The notes: generated by a model not told the origin, from the letters alone. A DNA stretch of 64,000 nt from a virus (IMGVR_UViG_2706794662_000007), one strand, 5' to 3'; counted from the first letter of the stretch, positions 1,320-33,414 are shown. Program-made: numbers and translations.

Positions 1320-2069
1320 TTAATTAGATAGGGGATCAATAAACCGCCGTGCTTCTTCCAGTTCTTCTGGAAAGTGGGCGGAAATAAGGCGCTCTGGAAC
1401 GATTTCCATTAGCCAGATAGCGGAGAAAATTGCGCGTATGCGCTTGCTGCGAGGGATGGTGCGCAAACACTCCAGAATCCACTCAAAATAGCTTTCCTGA
1501 ATCGGGTTGAACTGCATGTCTCCCATATGCTTAAAGCTAACAAGAGAGTCATCCAGACGGGTTGTTGCGCGTCTGGCTAATTTCTCTTCGAATATCTCAA
1601 CCAGCTCTGGCTGCCACAAATGCTGTGGGCGCGGCAGCTTGTCCCACAGCCGTCGTGCAGCTGCGGAAAGAACGGTGGAGATAAAGTAGTCGTATGAGCA
1701 GCAATAGCGGTCAGCAAACTGGCGTGCTTTCCATAGAGACGTTTTATTGGCAGTCGACAACTCCTGATAAGGCAGGCGTTTTAACCCGGTGGTGAACGGA
1801 GCTGTTTCAAAGTGTTCGCGACCGTGCGTCAGCATGATATTTGAGTACTGACGTTTGTATGCCTCCGTAAACAGACAGGTGGCCATAAGAGGATGCATGT
1901 CTCGGTAATCAAACCACTTCGTCTCGAAGAGTTCAGCCTCGTCTTTACAGCGCGACAAACCAATGTTTTCAGCGACCCACTTGTCCATAACAGCGGTATT
2001 CCACTCTGTCATGAAGTCGTACTGGTCGTTGTCGATGGTATCGAAAAAGATTTGGCTCATGTGGCTCAC
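1320..2069 (-). CDS. hypothetical protein, 249 aa (GTG at 2069 or ATG at 2060)
   Basis: ORF track; co-oriented just upstream of helicase gene. Confidence 0.45.
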   Translation of the reverse strand: MSHMSQIFFDTIDNDQYDFMTEWNTAVMDKWVAENIGLSRCKDEAELFETKWFDYRDMHPLMATCLFTEAYKRQYSNIMLTHGREHFETAPFTTGLKRLPYQELSTANKTSLWKARQFADRYCCSYDYFISTVLSAAARRLWDKLPRPQHLWQPELVEIFEEKLARRATTRLDDSLVSFKHMGDMQFNPIQESYFEWILECLRTIPRSKRIRAIFSAIWLMEIVPERLISAHFPEELEEARRFIDPLSN

Positions 2070-2176
2070 CTGGTAGGTAGTTACTTACTTATCACAATGG
2101 ACGGATGATAGCGACTGGTGTCAGTTTTTGGAAGTGAAAACGGAAGGGAGTTGTTCTGGTGGTGTCTTTTAAAAGA

Positions 2177-2229
2177 CCTGCTTCCGTATATATTTAATAA
2201 GTTACTTATTATTTATATACAGAAACAGG
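2177..2229. repeat. ~53-bp near-perfect palindrome, copy A (CCTGCTTCCGTATATAT...ATATACAGAAACAGG)
   Basis: inverted arms flank AT-rich centre TTAATAAGTTACTTATTA; near-identical copies at 33069-33123 and 63687-63747. Confidence 0.75.
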
Positions 2230-2334
2230 CTCCTAATGGATACCAAGAACAACATAATTTGACTCCAACTCCAGATGCTATGTCATTGACAGATTTATCA
2301 AGGGAGATCATGTTAGAATTAGTGTTTTAGCCTC

Positions 2335-3408
2335 GTGGATATTGTCACCATGCGCATGAATAGACTTCCAGGATATGGCCTTCCCGAACTGGCTTTTTGG
2401 CCTCAGCCTAAATATGAACGGAATAAATGGTCGATGTTCTGTCTGAAACTCCGTAATGATGGAACCCTTGCTTGGTATCGGCGATATGTTGATCGTGGTA
2501 TGCCAAACCACGCTGTTGATGACGACTACGATAACTATCCTGAAGCAAGAAAAGCGGCATTAGAGCTGAATAAAAACGTGAGCTTTGACATTGAAAAACT
2601 TCCTCTATCTATGTTTCAAAAGAAGTCATTGCGTTTGAAAGTTGACAAAGCACTCAAAGCCAAATCACGTCTCATGGATGAAGAGTATATAATGCTCAAC
2701 GAAGCAATTAAGGCACACGCCAACGATCCGCGAGTGACATTAAATGAGTTAATAATTAACCCAGATTACGAAACTTTGCGTCAACCCCTTTTTGACGTGC
2801 TAAGCGAGATGCCTTACTTACATTTTGTTTTTCTTCCCAAATTCCAAGTTTCACTTCAACTCGTTGCTCCTAACACTTGGGAATGTTCATATAACAACAA
2901 AGCTAAGACAGCGAAGATCTGCTACCAAGAACGCATAGCCAGAGGTTTTGGTTTATCAGGTGCTGCACATTGGGGAAAAACAAAAGCGACTATTCGCTCA
3001 ATGCTTCTGCCGCGTGCTAACCGGTTACTGCAACTCGCCAGCGTAAAAAGAATGCTGGATGAAGCTCTCAGGAATGGGCAAAAGGTACTGGTTGTTGGCA
3101 ACTTTGTTTTCTGGTTTGAGGACAAAAATCAGGTAGGTTGGAGTGTTAAAGTTGCTAGCGAAAGCGAAACCACCTCAAGAGGCAATACGCTCTGGAAAGA
3201 AGGAACTATCATTTCAAAAAATCACGGTCGAATTGTCGTGCTGCCGTATACAAAAGAAAACGGTAAACATGTAAAAGGTTATACCAAGAATGCCCCTAAC
3301 GACGGCAATGCAATTCCGAGACATAAGGATGAGTATGTTGAGTTGCCCTTTGAAATTTTGGATGGTGACTTGATGTTCAGTCTGTTCGGTGAGCTTAACT
3401 ACGAATAG
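2335..3408 (+). CDS. hypothetical protein, 357 aa; AT-richer than flanks (cargo-like)
   Basis: ORF track; only plus-strand gene in a minus-strand region; no motif recognised. Confidence 0.5.
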   Translation: MDIVTMRMNRLPGYGLPELAFWPQPKYERNKWSMFCLKLRNDGTLAWYRRYVDRGMPNHAVDDDYDNYPEARKAALELNKNVSFDIEKLPLSMFQKKSLRLKVDKALKAKSRLMDEEYIMLNEAIKAHANDPRVTLNELIINPDYETLRQPLFDVLSEMPYLHFVFLPKFQVSLQLVAPNTWECSYNNKAKTAKICYQERIARGFGLSGAAHWGKTKATIRSMLLPRANRLLQLASVKRMLDEALRNGQKVLVVGNFVFWFEDKNQVGWSVKVASESETTSRGNTLWKEGTIISKNHGRIVVLPYTKENGKHVKGYTKNAPNDGNAIPRHKDEYVELPFEILDGDLMFSLFGELNYE

Positions 3409-3468
3409 CTTTCATAGAACGAAATATTTCTAAGGCTGTCCAATGCAGACCAGCCTTAGAGATTTATA

Positions 3469-3828
3469 TCAACCTTTCTTCATTAACTCGCGTTTAATTT
3501 CATCGGTACGCATCGTGACATCGGCAGCAGTGATCGCCTCGTTAAGCTTCACGATGTCCTCGATTTCCTGCGGTGACTTCTCTGCCAGATGGAAAATAGC
3601 AGCACGAATCACATCAGAGCGGGTGAATTTCTCGAAGCGAGGGATGAACTTCATCATCTCCAGCAGTTCGAAGTATTCGTCCTCCAGTGACATTGTGCGG
3701 CTTTTAATTTTCTCTTTGCCACGAGTCGGGCGTCCCTGTGGTCTGACTGGTTGGCGCAAAGGAGTTGTGTTCTTAGCCGGTGCATCAGACTCTTTGCGCT
3801 TTGCTAGGTCACCCATTTTCATGGACAT
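3469..3828 (-). CDS. small partition partner candidate (ParG/ribbon-helix-helix-like DNA-binding protein)
   Basis: 119 aa, basic N-terminus, start overlaps parA stop (ATGA-type junction at 3828). Confidence 0.35.
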   Translation of the reverse strand: MSMKMGDLAKRKESDAPAKNTTPLRQPVRPQGRPTRGKEKIKSRTMSLEDEYFELLEMMKFIPRFEKFTRSDVIRAAIFHLAEKSPQEIEDIVKLNEAITAADVTMRTDEIKRELMKKG

Positions 3829-4496
3829 TATTCTTCTTCCTCCAGACTCAACAGATAATCTACAAATTCTTCAAACTCGGCTTCCGCCTTTTTGTCGCGC
3901 TCGCTACCGGTCATTTCAAAGATAGAACGACCAGACTCTTCCGCATCATCATAGACGTTGCGGTTATATAGATTGACTGGCGCAGACTCGATGCCAAACG
4001 TCTCAACAATCTCTTTAGCCGCCAGAATGCGAGACACTTGTGATGGCAAAGCCGGGCACTGGTTCATGACCGCGCGGACCTTCACTTTATCGTTTACATT
4101 GCGAACATTGTCGATAATAGGATCGATGTCACGTAAAGATTTCAAATCACGACGCTTAGGACGCAGCGGGATAATGATAACGTCAGCCATCAGCATCGCT
4201 TGTCGCTGAATTTCGGAGTCGAAGCCACCAGCATCTACCACTACAAACTCAGCTCTACCCTGAAGCGATTTTAGGTGCTTAATGATGTCATCCTGAACGT
4301 ATGCAAAAGGAATCAGCTCAAGGTCTTCGTTCTGTCGACGGTCTTCACACCAGCTCGTTGTCGTGCGCTGAATATCTATATCGGTAATATAAACCTTCTT
4401 CTTCTTTTTGACTTTCAGGCAAACGGCAATTTGCTGGGCAACGGTGGATTTGCCAGGCCCGCCCTTTGTGCCGCCAACCACAAAGATCTTGGTCAT
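3828..4496 (-). CDS. parA: ParA/ParF-type partition ATPase
   Basis: deviant Walker A GGTKGGPGKST at N-terminus; 222 aa. Confidence 0.8.
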   Translation of the reverse strand: MTKIFVVGGTKGGPGKSTVAQQIAVCLKVKKKKKVYITDIDIQRTTTSWCEDRRQNEDLELIPFAYVQDDIIKHLKSLQGRAEFVVVDAGGFDSEIQRQAMLMADVIIIPLRPKRRDLKSLRDIDPIIDNVRNVNDKVKVRAVMNQCPALPSQVSRILAAKEIVETFGIESAPVNLYNRNVYDDAEESGRSIFEMTGSERDKKAEAEFEEFVDYLLSLEEEE

Positions 4497-4549: not shown

Positions 4550-4630
4550 TATGTGATATAGCCTAAATGCCTACGGCTGCTGTGTAAAGGTTTAATGATA
4601 GGTACATAGATTTGGTAAGGACTTAATAAC

Positions 4631-4650
4631 AAAAAACCCGCCGTAGCGGG
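4631..4650 (-). terminator. rho-independent terminator after 258-aa gene
   Basis: hairpin CCCGCCGTAGCGGG with A-run on plus strand (U-tract on minus). Confidence 0.55.
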
Positions 4651-4658
4651 TTTAGGAA

Positions 4659-5435
4659 TTAGTGGTTGGTAGACCTGGCATCAAATGTTGTAACGCCCAC
4701 TTCAATGTGGCGGTCTTCTTTGGAGATGATGGTGAGAATCTGACTAGATGGGTCTATGCTGACAGCCATAGGGTTCCAGTGACGTAACTGAGCCTCGCTG
4801 TTCAATAGCAGCGCATCCCACGGTTTGACGCCATTCTGCCCAATACCACCTTCAACAAGGACATCTATAAATTCTTTATTTAAATTGTCATAGATTTGGA
4901 CACGACCGACCAAAAGCATACCTACAGCCCAAATTCTGGCACCGTAAACCGTCTGATGGTCATCACATACTACATGGTCATGCCAATTGAGAAGAAAATT
5001 GTAAACTCTTCTAGCAAGTCCCTTTTGTTCCTTTGAAGGGGTTACAAATGCCCCTTTAATCTGGACCCCAAGGTGAGAGCCTTTTTGTGAGCGAAACTGG
5101 AATCGTTTGTAGACGAACCTGGCGATCTGAATGCCGTCATCATCTTCTTGCTCATCACCAACTAATTCACGAACACTATGAACTATCTCTTCTTCTGAAT
5201 GCCCCTGCTCGTCAAGATCCATTGCATGTTCTTGAAGCCAATCTGCATCAGGGTCGCCTACAAATGACACTGTCAAACAGTAATCATAATTAGACCCGAT
5301 CAAGGACCACTCTGTGAGCCGTAAAACAGAAAAATCAGAGTTAACCATGTAGCCAACTCTGATTTTCTCTCTTGCTTCACATTCAGGGAAATCAGACAGT
5401 ACTTTTGAATACTCTGCTATGAATGATGGTGACAT
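4659..5435 (-). CDS. hypothetical protein, 258 aa (acidic central region)
   Basis: ORF track; abuts next ORF with 1-nt gap. Confidence 0.5.
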   Translation of the reverse strand: MSPSFIAEYSKVLSDFPECEAREKIRVGYMVNSDFSVLRLTEWSLIGSNYDYCLTVSFVGDPDADWLQEHAMDLDEQGHSEEEIVHSVRELVGDEQEDDDGIQIARFVYKRFQFRSQKGSHLGVQIKGAFVTPSKEQKGLARRVYNFLLNWHDHVVCDDHQTVYGARIWAVGMLLVGRVQIYDNLNKEFIDVLVEGGIGQNGVKPWDALLLNSEAQLRHWNPMAVSIDPSSQILTIISKEDRHIEVGVTTFDARSTNH

Positions 5436-5834
5436 TTAGTTAGCAAGCCGCATATCCGTAGATGAATCCAGTTTCGCTATTTTAACATCTACGCGGTATT
5501 TATCTTTGATAAATTTAGCTATTTTGCTTTCAATCTCATAGAAAGCATCCTGTTCACAACGCACAACATCGGGAAACTGTTTTTCTGGCTTAACAAGAAA
5601 ACGTAACCGATTGTTGAGCACCATCATTTCTGCAAACAATTTGATGGTAAACTTGCCTTCTTCAACGTCACTTTTAAGGTTAACGATGAAACGCTGATCC
5701 TTAAGCATACCCGGTTTGTTCATTTCACGAATTTGGAGCGAGTCATTCCAATGCCGCAACGGAACCGATGCGATCATCTTGGTACAGTCTCTTATCGTCT
5801 GAATAGAACGAGATGCGTTAAGCGCAGTATGCAT
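5436..5834 (-). CDS. hypothetical protein, 132 aa
   Basis: ORF track; translationally coupled to 4659-5435. Confidence 0.45.
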   Translation of the reverse strand: MHTALNASRSIQTIRDCTKMIASVPLRHWNDSLQIREMNKPGMLKDQRFIVNLKSDVEEGKFTIKLFAEMMVLNNRLRFLVKPEKQFPDVVRCEQDAFYEIESKIAKFIKDKYRVDVKIAKLDSSTDMRLAN

Positions 5835-6008
5835 GTTTCCACCTTAGCCGGTAATAACTTTATGTCATAGCGGCGACCTTGTCGGTTTAGAGGCTACGAG
5901 TATGCGTCGATTTATTAAAACAAGGTATGATTTACTTGACATCCATGCTTCAAATCTACCTTGTGCTCTAATAATATGCAAATTTTATGTTAGAAAATTC
6001 CGCTTTTA

Positions 6009-6412: not shown

Positions 6413-7132
6413 TTAGGCCATCCCTTTCTGGTGTTTTCTTACCTGCGACCAGGCAATGAATCCTGCCACAACAATAGTGGCAATACCGAAGATGATGCGT
6501 ACTGTATCCCCACTAGAGATATGACCTTGTGCTTTATCCATAGCAGCGGAAACCTGCGGCATAACATCGGCCAGCTGCGCCAGACCAATACCTGCTGTAA
6601 CAGTTGCGCCTGCTGTTTCTTTAGTTACAGGAACAGCCTTCACGGTTTTCACCGGCTTAACGACTCCAGCTCGACGCAGACCTTCCTCAATAACTTCTGC
6701 CGCATACCAGGTGTTCAGCGTTTTTAGCGGACCTCGCCCATTCTCATGGCGAATGATTGCCTCAACCAAAGGTCGAAGGATGTCGTAATCATGCAGATCG
6801 ATGATCATGTCTGCGGTTACACCAACAGCTTTAGACACCTCATTAATGTAGGTGTCAGTGTTGTTTTCATTCGGCGGTGCCCAACGTTCAATAACTTCGC
6901 GAATGGTATCAATACTTGAGCCGTCTTTGGCGCGACGTTTATCGTGGTAGGTAATTAGAGTCACTGCCAGAGCACGAATACCCCAAACAGGGTCTTTAAA
7001 CGTGCAAAAGCGAGGTTCGTCTGGATTCGCAACCAGACCTTGCCACGGTGATCCTTTATCAAGATTACCGGGGTTATTATTACGAATGCCTCTCGGAGTC
7101 TTCATCCTTGTTCTCCTGTTATTGCAGTCCAT
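6413..7132 (-). CDS. putative cell-wall hydrolase (endolysin candidate) with C-terminal TM segment
   Basis: position between holin-like and spanin-like genes; GIRNNNPGNL motif; assignment positional. Confidence 0.35.
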   Translation of the reverse strand: MDCNNRRTRMKTPRGIRNNNPGNLDKGSPWQGLVANPDEPRFCTFKDPVWGIRALAVTLITYHDKRRAKDGSSIDTIREVIERWAPPNENNTDTYINEVSKAVGVTADMIIDLHDYDILRPLVEAIIRHENGRGPLKTLNTWYAAEVIEEGLRRAGVVKPVKTVKAVPVTKETAGATVTAGIGLAQLADVMPQVSAAMDKAQGHISSGDTVRIIFGIATIVVAGFIAWSQVRKHQKGMA

Positions 7133-7442
7133 TTTTTACGCCATATGCGGCTAATCCTAAAATTAGTGCGGTTATAATAAACGACGTCACTTTAGAAATA
7201 ATGCCTCCAAAGAAGCCGCTTGAGATCGAATCTAACCTATTAAGTAGTTTATCCAGATTGGAATGTTGAATACTGTGTTGAGCCGGAGTCATGTCACCAA
7301 AATAGTTTTTCAACTGCTCATGAACCTCATGAACTATCTCCTCTCTGATTTCTTTTCCTAATTTACCAACAACTTCTCTGGCGACAATTTTAGCTATTCT
7401 CTCAACCTGATCATGAGTGACGCCTCCTACGTCATTAGCCAT
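7119..7442 (-). CDS. small membrane protein, holin candidate
   Basis: 107 aa, single C-terminal TM helix, first gene of lysis cassette. Confidence 0.3.
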   Translation of the reverse strand: MANDVGGVTHDQVERIAKIVAREVVGKLGKEIREEIVHEVHEQLKNYFGDMTPAQHSIQHSNLDKLLNRLDSISSGFFGGIISKVTSFIITALILGLAAYGVKNGLQ

Positions 7443-7476
7443 GCTTCCTCCATGAGCAATCTATTTTAATATCCCC

Positions 7477-7494
7477 TTACATAATTTTATGTAA
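7477..7494. promoter_or_regulatory. perfect 18-bp palindrome TTACATAATTTTATGTAA in AT-rich region upstream of lysis cassette
   Basis: read directly; candidate operator or late-promoter element. Confidence 0.4.
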
Positions 7495-7539
7495 TTTAAA
7501 TATCAACTGAAATTTAAATAATATATAACCTTTTATATT

Positions 7540-8052
7540 TTAACTAATTTTCAAATCTTGTGTAACCCCCGTCCTTTTCATTGCCGTTATAAAGGCCGAA
7601 CTAGGTGTTCCTTGCCAGTAATAGTGAAAACCGTTAATAACACTATTGTAAGTAAAAACTTGTGAGACTCCACCAACTGTTACTGTAATATTGCTTGCCC
7701 TTCCCCCTGCGATGTATAAACCCCCAGTGGGCGGTAAACCTGGAACGTAGTGAGCTTGCGTAAGCACGATCCCCACTAAACGACCTAAACCACAGCTCGA
7801 AGCACCAGCAATTGTACCTTGGTTCTTTTCAGCCAATGGCCAATCTGAACCTACAGCCCCCCAGTTTTCGACTTTATCAGGAGGATTCCCTTTATAGTAA
7901 GCGGTTGCAATTTTACAGCCCATAGATCGTCCCACCATTTGACTCATCATAAAAGGTTTACCCAATCCTAACTTAGTACCCGCAGCGCTCATCCATTGTT
8001 CGCCCGTTTCGCTCTTAGCCGAAGAACCGACCCATCCCGACGCTACCCCCAT
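7540..8052 (-). CDS. glycine-rich hypothetical protein, 170 aa, downstream of tail fibre
   Basis: ORF track; Gly-rich segments; position typical of fibre accessory/adhesin genes. Confidence 0.4.
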   Translation of the reverse strand: MGVASGWVGSSAKSETGEQWMSAAGTKLGLGKPFMMSQMVGRSMGCKIATAYYKGNPPDKVENWGAVGSDWPLAEKNQGTIAGASSCGLGRLVGIVLTQAHYVPGLPPTGGLYIAGGRASNITVTVGGVSQVFTYNSVINGFHYYWQGTPSSAFITAMKRTGVTQDLKIS

Positions 8053-8137
8053 TTTACCCCTCCTTTTGAATGCGTGGGGTGAGTATCACCCCCACAATTT
8101 AAATTCAGTAGAAACCAGAAACTCCAACAGCTGTCGT

Positions 8138-11100
8138 TTACTTCTCCCGAAGTTCTTTAATCTCATGACGAAGTGTTTTAAAGCCCTCGACTAACAATGC
8201 AATTATGCCGTTGTAGTTAAGACACAGACGTTTTTCACCAGATATAACGTCTGTGTCTTCAGTTACCAGTTCAGACAATGCTTTTTGTGCATCCTGAGCA
8301 ATTAAACCAACTGACGTTTTCCAACTATCATCAGAGAGTTGGATTTCATAAAGATAACCAGTAAGTGCCTCCAAACGATCTAACGCATTATCTAGCTTTA
8401 CCAGATTACGCTTGTTACGCTTATCTGAGCGGATCTGAACATCATTAAATGAGCCATTTCCATTTACAGTCAAATTACCTGTTATCGTACCCCCACCGAT
8501 AGGCAAAGCACCAATTTGAGCGGCACTTATACTAATATTTTTTGTTCCGTCGAAACTTACTCCATTTATAGTACGTGCTGTTTGTAGCTTAGTTGCTGAT
8601 GCTGCGTTACCAGATGTATTCTGATTTCCTGACGTATTCACACCTGGAAGATTAATGTTTGCGCTACCATCAAATGATACTCCACCTATTGTTCTTGATG
8701 TTTTTAATTTAGTAGCTGTTGCAGCATTACCTGATGTGTTCTGATTTCCAGCTTTGTTAACGCCTGGTAAATCTATATTCGCTGTACCATCAAACGATAC
8801 CCCCCCTATATTTCTCGCTGTTTTCAGTTTCGTAGCCGAAACTGCATTTCCATTTGAGGCAAGGGCGCCTATCTCTGAAGCCGTTGGTTTATTTTGAGAA
8901 CTGTAATTACGACGCCATGTTGGGCTATAGTTATCGCCGTTGTATGTATAAATAAACTCACTATTAAGAACAGCACCAGATGCACCTCCAGATGTTGAAG
9001 GTGTTGTAATGCGTATAGTGTAATTACTTGTACCGGTTGAAAACACCTCAATAACAGAACCAGCAAGAGGTATAACTCCACATCCCGTTGATGCATTTCC
9101 TATATAACAGTTACTACCATAAGACCAGCTACAACGTGTGCTCCACTGAGTTGCATCAAATGCCCCTTGTGAATTTAACCATGCGACAAATTGTGCAGTT
9201 GTCCACTCTTGAGTATTCCCCGTAGCAAGATTAGCAACATATTTTGCTGCACCTAGTTGTTTTGGCGTGATGCTTATATTCTTTGAGCCATCAAAACTGA
9301 CCCCATTTATTTTTCGTGCCGTTGCAAGTTTTGTCGCCGTTGCAGCATTACCTGACGTGTTCTGATTTCCAGCTTTATTGACACCAGGTAAGTCAATATT
9401 TGCAGTGCCATTAAACGATACCCCACCTATTGTTCTTGCCGTTTGCAGTCTCGTTGCGCTCCCTGCATTACCTGTTGTACTCTGATTTCCAACCTTGTTA
9501 ACGCCTGGTAAGTCAATATTTGCAGTGCCGTCAAATAACATTCCACCAATTGAACGAGGTGTTGCTAACTTAGTGGCAGAGGCAGCGTTTCCACTAGTAC
9601 TCTGAGTTCCTGTTGAGTTTACACCTGGTAGATTTATATCTGATGAACCATCAAACGGTACTCCGCCAATTTTTCGTGCTGCTTTTAATTTTGTTGCGGT
9701 ATCGGAATTTCCGTTAAGTGAGCCTGCAAGACCATTACTAAATGTTTGCTTTGCACTCCATGTATTGGCTGTACTCAATAAAGGTATTTTATCGCCACTT
9801 GTTCCATTTTCCTTCAATCCAAGATACTGAATAATCGCCTGTACACTTGCTTTAGAAAGAATATCTCGACCAACAGAAGTTATTGTTGCTAATCCAGCTG
9901 TATCATTCCCTGTAAAATAAGGAAGTTTATTAGCGGCTGTTGTTAGTCCAGCCAGTGCAGTCAGCGTAGCATCAAGAGGTTGTTTTGTGGCCAACTTGTT
10001 CGTCATTGTTGTGGCAAAATCGGGATCATCACCCAAAGCCCTTGCCAACTCATTAAGAGTATCAAGCGCTTCAGGTGATGATCCTACAAGACCTGAGATC
10101 GCTTCTCTTACATAAGCAGTTGTGGCAATTTGCGTATTATTAGTGCCTTGAGTCGCCGTTGGTGCCGTTGGTGTGCCAGTAAATGCTGGGCTGTTGATTG
10201 CTGCTTTTCTATCAGCAAGATCCTTTACACTTTTAACCGCTTTTGTTGTTGCGGCCAATGATTCAGAGGCGTTATTTGTATCGCTACTTAATTGAACCAG
10301 CCCTTTTTGTGAAGTTGTCGCGTCATTTGCAGTATATTTTGATTTAGCAAGATCAAACGCAGCCTTTACTGCTTTTGGTGTTGCTGCAAATTCTTCTGAC
10401 GAACTGCTCGTCTCACTGCTTAATTTGACAATACCCTTCATAGTCAAACTGGCATCATGTAATGATATCGCTGACAAAGCTCTTTCTGCTCTAGTAGCAG
10501 CTATCTCTGCACGCTCTGCCGATGCAAGTGCTGATGTTTGGCTTTGCTTTGCTTCTTCTGCTTTAGCCGCAGATTCAGCTGATTTCGATGATGCGTTACT
10601 AGCACTAGTTGAGGCTTCAGCAGACTTTCGGCTAGCTTCATCCTTCGAAGCTCTAGCAGCAGACGCATAAGTTGAAGCCTGATTAGCGGATGTCTTCGCA
10701 GACCTTGCCGACTCTCTAGCCTGATTTGCAGAAGTTGATGCACTGCCAGCACCAGAAGCAGCATTCATTTCAGATAATTTTGCAGCCTCTTTAGAGACCA
10801 ACGCAGCATTAGCCGAACTTGTGGCTTCTGTTGCCTTAGTGGAAGCTGTTGATGCAGAAATTGCAGCTGCGTTCTTCGCCTCTAAAGCACTTGTTTCTGA
10901 TGCTTTAGCACTTGATGCACTTTTATTTGCTGCATTTTTAGACGCTGTAGCATCCAACGCACTATTAGATGCCTGAGTAGCCTTACTGCTTGCTAGATTC
11001 GCACTCTTCGCCGCAGCCGACGCACTGGCCGCAGCCTGTTTTGCTTTATCTCCTGCGGAATTAATTGCGTTAGTATTATTTTCATACCATTCTACGTGCT

Positions 11101-33068: not shown

Positions 33069-33123
33069 CCTGCTTCTGTATATATTTAATAAGTTACTTA
33101 TTATTTATATATACAGAAGCAGG
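33069..33123. repeat. ~55-bp palindrome, copy B
   Basis: CCTGCTTCTGTATATATTTAATAAGTTACTTATTATTTATATATACAGAAGCAGG. Confidence 0.75.
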
Positions 33124-33147: not shown

Positions 33148-33414
33148 TTACATCACCAGTAACTTCGCTTTGGCTCGACCTAAAGTGGTTAACCCAAGAG
33201 TCCGGCGGTGATAGCGATTGTCACTGCGTTGGCGCGTATGTCCTTTCTCCACCAGCCCCTTTTTTATCAGAGCGCGAATTGAGAACTGGATGCTTTGCTT
33301 GGTTGTCTTGTACGGCAAAACTTCAAGCAATTCGTCCAGATCAAGTAGATGACCTCGCTCATAACCGAGATTGAGCGTTTTGATGATGTCCTTTTGTTTG
33401 TCGGTTAACGTCAT
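33148..33414 (-). CDS. winged-helix DNA-binding protein candidate
   Basis: 88 aa; helix-turn-wing pattern; sits beside palindrome B. Confidence 0.4.
   Translation of the reverse strand: MTLTDKQKDIIKTLNLGYERGHLLDLDELLEVLPYKTTKQSIQFSIRALIKKGLVEKGHTRQRSDNRYHRRTLGLTTLGRAKAKLLVM

Follow-up and report, generated by a model that had tools for sequence, protein, structure and literature searches.

A lone gene in a replaceable slot of an SSU5-type phage-plasmid is a candidate stand-alone defense gene from an uncatalogued protein family

What is the function of a gene that runs against the direction of its neighbors beside the partition genes of a phage-plasmid, and whose product is annotated as a hypothetical protein in every source? 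The question is raised by a 64,000-nucleotide stretch of viral DNA (IMGVR_UViG_2706794662_000007, here called the window), in which a plus-strand open reading frame (ORF) at positions 2335-3408 lies between a large palindrome and a partition locus. An original prediction, made from the sequence, regarded this orphan gene as cargo or as an immunity gene under independent regulation. Here we find that it is cargo and not part of the backbone. We consider it somewhat probable (roughly 55%) that it encodes a stand-alone defense protein acting against phages or other mobile elements, composed of a variable sensor and a conserved effector and expressed from the resident plasmid prophage. We favor this reading because the other genes that occupy the same slot are defense genes, because homologs lie in defense islands and at prophage accessory sites, and because the gene stands alone and is patchily distributed.

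The orphan gene is cargo in a replaceable slot

The element that carries the orphan gene belongs with the SSU5/pHCM2-type phage-plasmids. The first 6 kb of the window are 98% identical to elements of this type (Escherichia phages PhiR41_1, Cyrano and CMS-2020a) and 79% identical to Klebsiella phage-plasmids, and four Shigella sonnei plasmids of 107-109 kb, including p1538007_2 (CP104415.1), match the 1.4 kb around the gene at 100% identity. Related elements share a minus-strand order of primase, DnaB-like helicase, phrog_2500 gene, slot, small ParB-like gene and ParA. In the window, the left backbone flank of the slot is the conserved phrog_2500 gene (1320-2069, minus strand), which precedes the DnaB-like helicase and primase genes on the same strand. 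The right flank is the partition locus (3469-4496, minus strand), which is present as predicted and consists of ParA (3828-4496; MipZ/ParA matches in Pfam, phrog_164) and a 119-amino-acid ParB-like partner (3469-3828). Between these flanks backbone similarity breaks down: it ends at the palindrome, stopping directly to its right at about position 2232, and restarts at the ParB-like gene.

The slot is filled by the orphan gene in the window and in 138 plasmid records, these being the records that cover at least 80% of a query spanning positions 1320-4496. Other elements carry different genes in the same place. In PhiR41_1 and pTB212 it is a 255-amino-acid plus-strand gene with a GIY-YIG domain and a match to PD-T4-3 (E 1.6e-23); in pS2-S1K81-2 it is PD-T7-5 (E 1.8e-139) together with PDC-S31/DUF2971; in Cyrano and SSU5 it is PDC-S31/DUF2971, whose matches across slots reach E 1.6e-41; and in NZ_OW849379.1 it is a 564-amino-acid P-loop NTPase matching PDC-S49 (E 5.4e-22). 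Plasmids of Citrobacter, Salmonella and the Salmonella Typhi (S. Typhi) pHCM2 type carry a homolog of the orphan gene next to DUF2971. PD-T4-3 and PD-T7-5 are experimentally derived systems, the former reportedly from the functional screen of Vassallo et al. in 2022. The position therefore has the features of a defense hotspot, that is, a variable slot between conserved core genes with known defense genes as its alternative occupants. According to a 2025 preprint, SSU5-group elements of Escherichia coli and Shigella carry PD-T4-3 and PD-T7-5. The preprint assigns p1538007_2 to a "clade K" that also contains pWPMR2, a phage-plasmid associated with extensively drug-resistant S. sonnei, and with DefenseFinder v1.3.0 it finds no detectable defense system in clade K and pHCM2-type plasmids. 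These two groups are the ones that carry the orphan gene.

SSU5, Cyrano, PhiR41_1 and several hundred sister plasmids share the backbone but lack the orphan gene, and this bears directly on one alternative explanation. A gene placed between a replication module (DnaB-like helicase and primase) and parAB, close to a large AT-rich palindrome, could encode the initiator of replication or some other protein on which the phage-plasmid depends to replicate or recombine. The sister elements replicate without it, which effectively excludes a Rep initiator. In addition, Pfam and NCBIfam detect no Rep, helicase or recombinase domain, scans for direct and tandem repeats were empty and gave no iterons, and the palindrome is retained where the gene is missing. 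The original prediction would have been refuted by clear similarity to a standard phage protein of replication or recombination; none was found. The probability that we assign to this explanation is negligible.

The reading frame itself is real. The ORF at 2335-3408 encodes 357 amino acids from a GTG start, and it has more than 300 full-length homologs. Pairwise ratios of nonsynonymous to synonymous substitution rates (dN/dS) are 0.15 for the comparison with the Klebsiella copy and 0.07 for that with the Citrobacter copy, values that indicate purifying selection. Because the start of the phrog_22329 profile and the starts of 40 of 40 aligned homologs correspond to the ATG at 2350, the probable product has 352 amino acids (2350-3408), and this ATG is likely the true start, with the GTG at 2335 as the alternative. 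RefSeq lists 357 amino acids in one S. sonnei record, and for another a 324-amino-acid version has been recorded. It is also the sole plus-strand gene in the first ~36.6 kb, since the other plus-strand ORFs of at least 120 amino acids all lie within longer minus-strand ORFs. Its guanine-plus-cytosine (GC) content is lower than that of the flanking genes, as had been noted (42.5% compared with 47-50%; at third codon positions, 0.405 compared with 0.51-0.58), but it is no outlier within the window, where the mean is 44.6% with a standard deviation of 4.4 and 28% of equal-sized segments are lower still. Composition alone is therefore weak evidence.

One part of the original prediction, that the palindrome is a sign of the gene's own regulation, has to be given up. 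The palindrome exists (palindrome A, 2177-2229, with 26-nucleotide arms that are 85% complementary) and forms the left boundary of the slot. It is a backbone element that is kept in PhiR41_1, Cyrano, Klebsiella, Citrobacter and pTB212 whatever cargo lies next to it, and a second copy occurs 30.9 kb away; being conserved regardless of cargo, it is not the operator of the orphan gene. The term "immunity" also needs to be divided. Immunity in the sense of a phage repressor does not hold: no helix-turn-helix match was found, many sister elements lack the gene, and a CI-type repressor was rejected on this ground together with the behavior of the palindrome. Immunity in the sense of anti-phage defense is plausible, given that the slot elsewhere holds PD-T4-3, PD-T7-5 and PDC-S31. 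Cargo stands as predicted, in view of the replaceable slot and of the upstream region and hairpin that accompany the gene.

The cassette carries its own upstream region and hairpin

The ~120 nucleotides to the right of palindrome A (2232-2349, plus strand) are specific to the cassette. They are conserved only among plasmids that have the orphan gene (E. coli/Shigella, Klebsiella and Citrobacter) and are unrelated in a PD-T4-3-bearing plasmid. A TGnTA(G/A)A(A/C)T motif, which reads TGtTAGAAT at 2311-2319 in the window, is kept in all of these hosts and, from a by-eye reading of the alignment, is a putative extended -10 promoter. A scan of the locus for consensus -35/-10 promoters found none, and there is no clear Shine-Dalgarno sequence upstream of the gene.

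On the other side, a hairpin at 3426-3463 lies between the convergent orphan and ParB-like genes. Its 13-nucleotide arms are 92% complementary, and its folding energy is -18.5 kcal/mol (z-score -3.7). The hairpin is kept 3' of the gene in Klebsiella and also in Citrobacter, where the DUF2971 gene comes next and the stem shows a compensatory change from T-A to G-C. It is probably a terminator that travels with the cassette. Since both the upstream region and the hairpin stay with the gene, the mobile unit consists of one promoter region, one ORF and one terminator. Scans of the locus against Rfam and for tandem repeats returned nothing but chance microRNA-type matches on the palindrome.

Homologs are widespread, stand alone and lie among defense genes

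A word-indexed search returned 346 clusters of homologs. Of the best 120 of these 346, a few are truncated and the others are about 350 amino acids long, and their identity to the query is 48-100%; homologs across Alpha-, Beta- and Gammaproteobacteria are 43-80% identical. Scanning of genomes located full-length copies, with 43-74% identity, in Enterobacterales, Vibrio, Aeromonas, Pseudomonas, Janthinobacterium, Bradyrhizobium, Sphingomonas, Caulobacter and others. Only 142 relatives emerged when a profile was run against 1.84 billion representative proteins, and the family is therefore small and tight.

The distribution is patchy. The gene is present in 37 of 5426 complete E. coli genomes, always on plasmids of 72-126 kb, most of them 108-116 kb. 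The copy on S. Typhi pHCM2-type plasmids is 75% identical. In the E. coli J-8 plasmid NZ_CP047004.1, IS1 interrupts the gene while the plasmid is otherwise 99% identical. An apparent 84-amino-acid remnant in S. Typhi plasmids proved to be an assembly gap in one record, and a second S. Typhi assembly has a single frameshift near residue 233 that is not distinguishable from sequencing error. The IS1 and frameshift cases possibly represent decay of cargo or, for the frameshift, sequencing error.

In order to see what surrounds the homologs, we examined 78 non-redundant loci and 120 representatives of neighbor clusters encoded within two genes of a homolog. The commonest neighbor family, a P-type ATPase flanking one Pseudomonas insertion site, is found in just 10 of the 78 loci, which means that the homologs stand alone and lack a conserved partner. 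Known defense proteins recur among the neighbor representatives: Lamassu LmuB (5 members, 6.6e-107), GajB (3 members, 1.4e-137), Mokosh MkoA (2 members, E 0) and PDC-S06 (2 members, 7e-186), together with OLD-TOPRIM ATPases accompanying the Gabija GajB, AbiLi-like and AriA-like ATPases, an N6 methylase, integrases and HipA-like kinases.

Individual loci serve as examples. An island in Bradyrhizobium has the order HNH, TIR_2, AbiJ_NTD3, DUF2971, orphan homolog and DUF5677. In the accessory region of the tail module of a Mu/P2-like prophage of Pseudomonas brassicacearum, the homolog is encoded between SMEK_N and SLATT 2TM-effector genes, all on one strand (7007-9597). The homolog of the P2-like Vibrio phage 1.202.O comes right after the integrase, beside a pair of AAA_21 ATPases and a repressor; in Salmonella it lies just past the integrase at the edge of a lambdoid prophage, and in an Aeromonas island it adjoins an integrase. 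Homologs in unrelated genomes are thus found amid defense genes or at prophage accessory sites, according to a count made without a matched random control.

DUF2971 appears twice among the neighbor representatives, and a homolog and DUF2971/PDC-S31 are immediate neighbors in three unrelated settings: a Citrobacter plasmid (1216-3096), the S. Typhi plasmids and Bradyrhizobium (6940-9068). This adjacency could be a coincidence within defense islands or a functional pairing.

The neighborhoods also bear on the possibility that the orphan gene is a selfish addiction module or toxin that acts by post-segregational killing beside the partition locus. The gene does adjoin parAB, the neighboring variable region of Cyrano carries a KacT toxin-antitoxin pair, and HipA-like kinases recur near homologs. 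Against these associations, the cassette has a single ORF with neither a partner ORF nor a known antitoxin RNA (there was no Rfam match), no neighbor is conserved across the 78 loci, and the gene is maintained by itself in three proteobacterial classes. A toxin-antitoxin module was rejected after neither a cognate antitoxin gene nor an antitoxin RNA was found adjacent, and we regard addiction in general as very unlikely.

A further explanation follows from the nature of the carriers. These are temperate phages and phage-plasmids, and the orphan protein might be counter-defense or host-takeover cargo that helps a phage-plasmid or prophage to become established by neutralizing a host system. Anti-defense genes such as Rad are reported from SSU5-type elements of S. 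sonnei (2025 preprint), and the acidic C-terminal tail of the protein, described below, could mimic nucleic acid. However, many homologs belong to chromosomal islands with TIR, AbiJ, Lamassu and Gabija, where no phage genes were called within the fetched flanks, and the other occupants of the slot are defense genes. Moreover, just 6 of 50,697 phage records have the gene, and none of them is a known virulent phage: three are Klebsiella SSU5-like phage-plasmids and three are P2-like (Peduoviridae) phage or prophage records, the latter all from one Vibrio cyclitrophicus host strain. A protein of 352 amino acids with a long, strongly conserved domain is also unlike most of the small anti-defense proteins that are known. 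We consider counter-defense rather unlikely.

A variable N-terminal half is joined to a conserved C-terminal module

The orphan protein is a full-length member of phrog_22329, a family without functional information (E 9e-256; residues 6-357 of the GTG-initiated product aligned to positions 1-352 of the 352-position profile). As the original prediction had stated, it has no recognizable motif: no match was found in Pfam, NCBIfam, PADLOC or the sequences of the PDB. No family of PADLOC v2.0.0 matched it at E up to 1, and a profile of the C-terminal domain, run against the PDB, gave no result. The only weak PDB match was the designed lectin MITSUBA-1, with E 2e-4 across 36 residues, and it was dismissed as a match of composition.

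The two halves of the protein differ markedly. Mean column conservation is 0.49 over residues 1-190 and 0.75 over residues 191-352, and the N-terminal half accumulates nonsynonymous changes about five times as fast as the C-terminal half. The variable N-terminal half (nucleotides 2350-2919) is the proposed sensor. AlphaFold2 (AF2) models residues 1-220 confidently, with a predicted local distance difference test score (pLDDT) above 90 over most of their length, and the N-terminal pattern of three strands, a helix and a long helix is present twice. Comparison of the two N-terminal units with the C-terminal unit by hhalign detected no internal repeat.

The highly conserved C-terminal half (nucleotides 2920-3405), the proposed effector, begins with a basic helical segment, continues into a beta-rich core and ends in an acidic tail (nucleotides 3331-3405) with an invariant Y-E terminus. 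Its charge is distributed in two basic stretches (+8 and +6) followed by the tail (-7). The core motif, W-x-E-G-x-I-x-S-K-N-H-G-R-I-V-V-L-P-Y-x-K-E-N-G-x-x-V-x-G-(H/Y)-T-K-N, occupies residues 276-327 (nucleotides 3175-3330), and W282, S289, N291, G293, R294, T312 and R324 are invariant. A second AF2 run on residues 200-352, with a deeper alignment of 126 sequences, gave two helices and a beta-rich domain. Alternatively, the protein could bind DNA as a regulator of mobile elements or be nucleoid-associated, for instance as a silencer or maintenance factor, without a direct role in phage defense; we think this unlikely.

The C-terminal module, with the consensus W-x-E-G-x-I-x-S-x-N-x-G ... G-x-T-(K/R)-N ... 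R ahead of the acidic tail, is common to at least three proteobacterial classes, and in remote relatives it is joined to other N-terminal domains. The remotest of them share just a ~50-residue core of the module (W.EG.I.SRN.G..IV.P..K.DGT.V.GYTRN.PG.G...PR), located at the C-terminus of otherwise unrelated proteins of ~210-510 amino acids whose N-termini differ (a coiled coil, a zinc ribbon or a longer helical region); one such protein comes from the planctomycete Algisphaera. A Pfam scan of 20 remote relatives returned one sub-threshold match to DUF6613 and N-terminal zinc-ribbon matches, with no other known domain, and a second word-indexed search with the C-terminal profile retrieved mostly fragments. 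The ~50-residue core looks like an undescribed mobile domain.

A model for the candidate defense protein

The cassette of promoter region, ORF and terminator hairpin is exchanged horizontally and resides in the slot that separates the replication module from parAB. If the orphan gene is a defense gene, the following course of events can be proposed. Residues 1-190, the fast-evolving N-terminal half, would recognize a cue of infection. The basic, beta-rich C-terminal module (residues 191-327) would be the effector, possibly acting on nucleic acid, and the invariant acidic tail would hold it inactive until the trigger arrives. In the end, either the infected cell or the invading phage would be arrested. 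Conservation and charge are the two features from which this scheme of sensor, effector and autoinhibitory tail has been drawn. It is also possible, although doubtful, that the family represents a new type of single-protein immune sensor-effector, that its C-terminal module has a new effector fold and mode of action, and that the gene is hidden defense cargo of pWPMR2/p1538007_2-type and S. Typhi pHCM2-type plasmids.

Several points weigh against a role in defense. The protein matches no known defense family or effector fold, and its conserved S, N, T, R, G, P and W residues are unlike a classical nuclease, NADase or protease site. The C-terminal half was of low confidence in the first AF2 model and only moderate in the second (pLDDT 80.7; predicted template modeling score, pTM, 0.76). 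The remote relative in Algisphaera sits amid housekeeping genes. The neighborhood count, besides being uncontrolled, drew on ORFs that a crude greedy caller had predicted in the fetched loci; inferring function from neighborhood is imperfect, and hotspots and prophage accessory sites also hold anti-defense genes, toxin-antitoxin systems and virulence cargo. Candidates of this kind are numerous, and about half of them fail on testing. The protective role is accordingly a prediction from context and sequence, and the mechanism is conjecture.

Relation to known systems

The closest counterpart in position is PD-T4-3 (PDLC04031 in PADLOC). It is found in the identical slot in PhiR41_1 and pTB212 as a lone divergent plus-strand gene to the right of the palindrome, and like the orphan gene it is a single gene encoding a few hundred residues. 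The two proteins have no sequence or domain relationship: PD-T4-3 has a GIY-YIG nuclease domain, whereas the orphan protein has no recognizable catalytic domain. PDC-S31/DUF2971 resembles the orphan gene in occupying the slot (SSU5, Cyrano) and in being a computational candidate whose mechanism is not known, and it recurs as the immediate neighbor of orphan homologs in Citrobacter, Salmonella, S. Typhi pHCM2-like plasmids and the Bradyrhizobium island. The proteins themselves are unrelated, and PDC-S31 is catalogued while the orphan family is absent from PADLOC v2.

A precedent for the slot as a whole comes from the defense hotspots of temperate phages and satellites, for example those of P2 and P4. 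Each has a fixed position between core genes at which unrelated defense cassettes of one or a few genes are swapped rapidly, and, as in the SSU5-type slot, near-identical backbones carry different cargo (PMC13586616). The SSU5-type slot differs in belonging to a siphovirus phage-plasmid and in lying between replication genes and parAB. No description of it as a hotspot was found in the literature searched, and literature searches by accession number and for the DefensePredictor supplements gave no mention of the orphan gene. Swapping of cargo at hotspots is thus known; what is new is an uncatalogued family for which no fold match was found.

Should the gene prove protective, it would represent a new defense family with an effector domain that has no solved-structure match in our searches, and on that account it might work by a new mechanism. 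The defense hotspot of SSU5-type phage-plasmids would then be located between the replication genes and parAB, a position that could be mined for further systems. A protective gene would also supply a concrete function for a phage-plasmid that extensively drug-resistant S. sonnei lineages inherit stably, and for the S. Typhi pHCM2-type plasmids, both of which are currently described as lacking resistance or defense cargo (2025 preprint). If it is not protective, the orphan gene is an ordinary unexplained accessory gene.

Other features of the locus

The second, near-identical copy of the 53-bp AT-rich palindrome is located at 33069-33121, between an 88-amino-acid ORF (33148-33414, minus strand) and the terS-like/terL genes, just upstream of the latter. 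The palindrome alone is common to the two sites, and their flanks are not. Together the copies enclose ~30.9 kb of minus-strand genes for packaging, head, tail, lysis and parAB, as well as the cargo slot. As minus-strand RNA, palindrome A folds at -37.6 kcal/mol (z-score -10.1) and is followed by UCUUUU; it may be a terminator or insulator of minus-strand transcripts, or a binding site for a regulator or other protein.

The 119-amino-acid partner of ParA (3469-3828, minus strand) is labeled "RelE/ParE putative toxin" in phage Cyrano. It has no Pfam match, and NCBIfam and PADLOC give only sub-threshold ones (aCcr1-like at 21 bits with a cut-off of 60; HEC-02B at E 0.006). The protein looks like a small centromere-binding protein that has been mislabeled as a toxin.

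A second variable region lies between parA and the lysis genes (4600-5900). Its ORFs in the window, at 4659-5435 and 5436-5834 on the minus strand, belong to phrog_3307 and phrog_2594, of no known function, and have no PADLOC match. The corresponding region encodes an antitoxin and the KacT acetyltransferase toxin in Cyrano and two other hypothetical genes in SSU5, and it may be another cargo hotspot.
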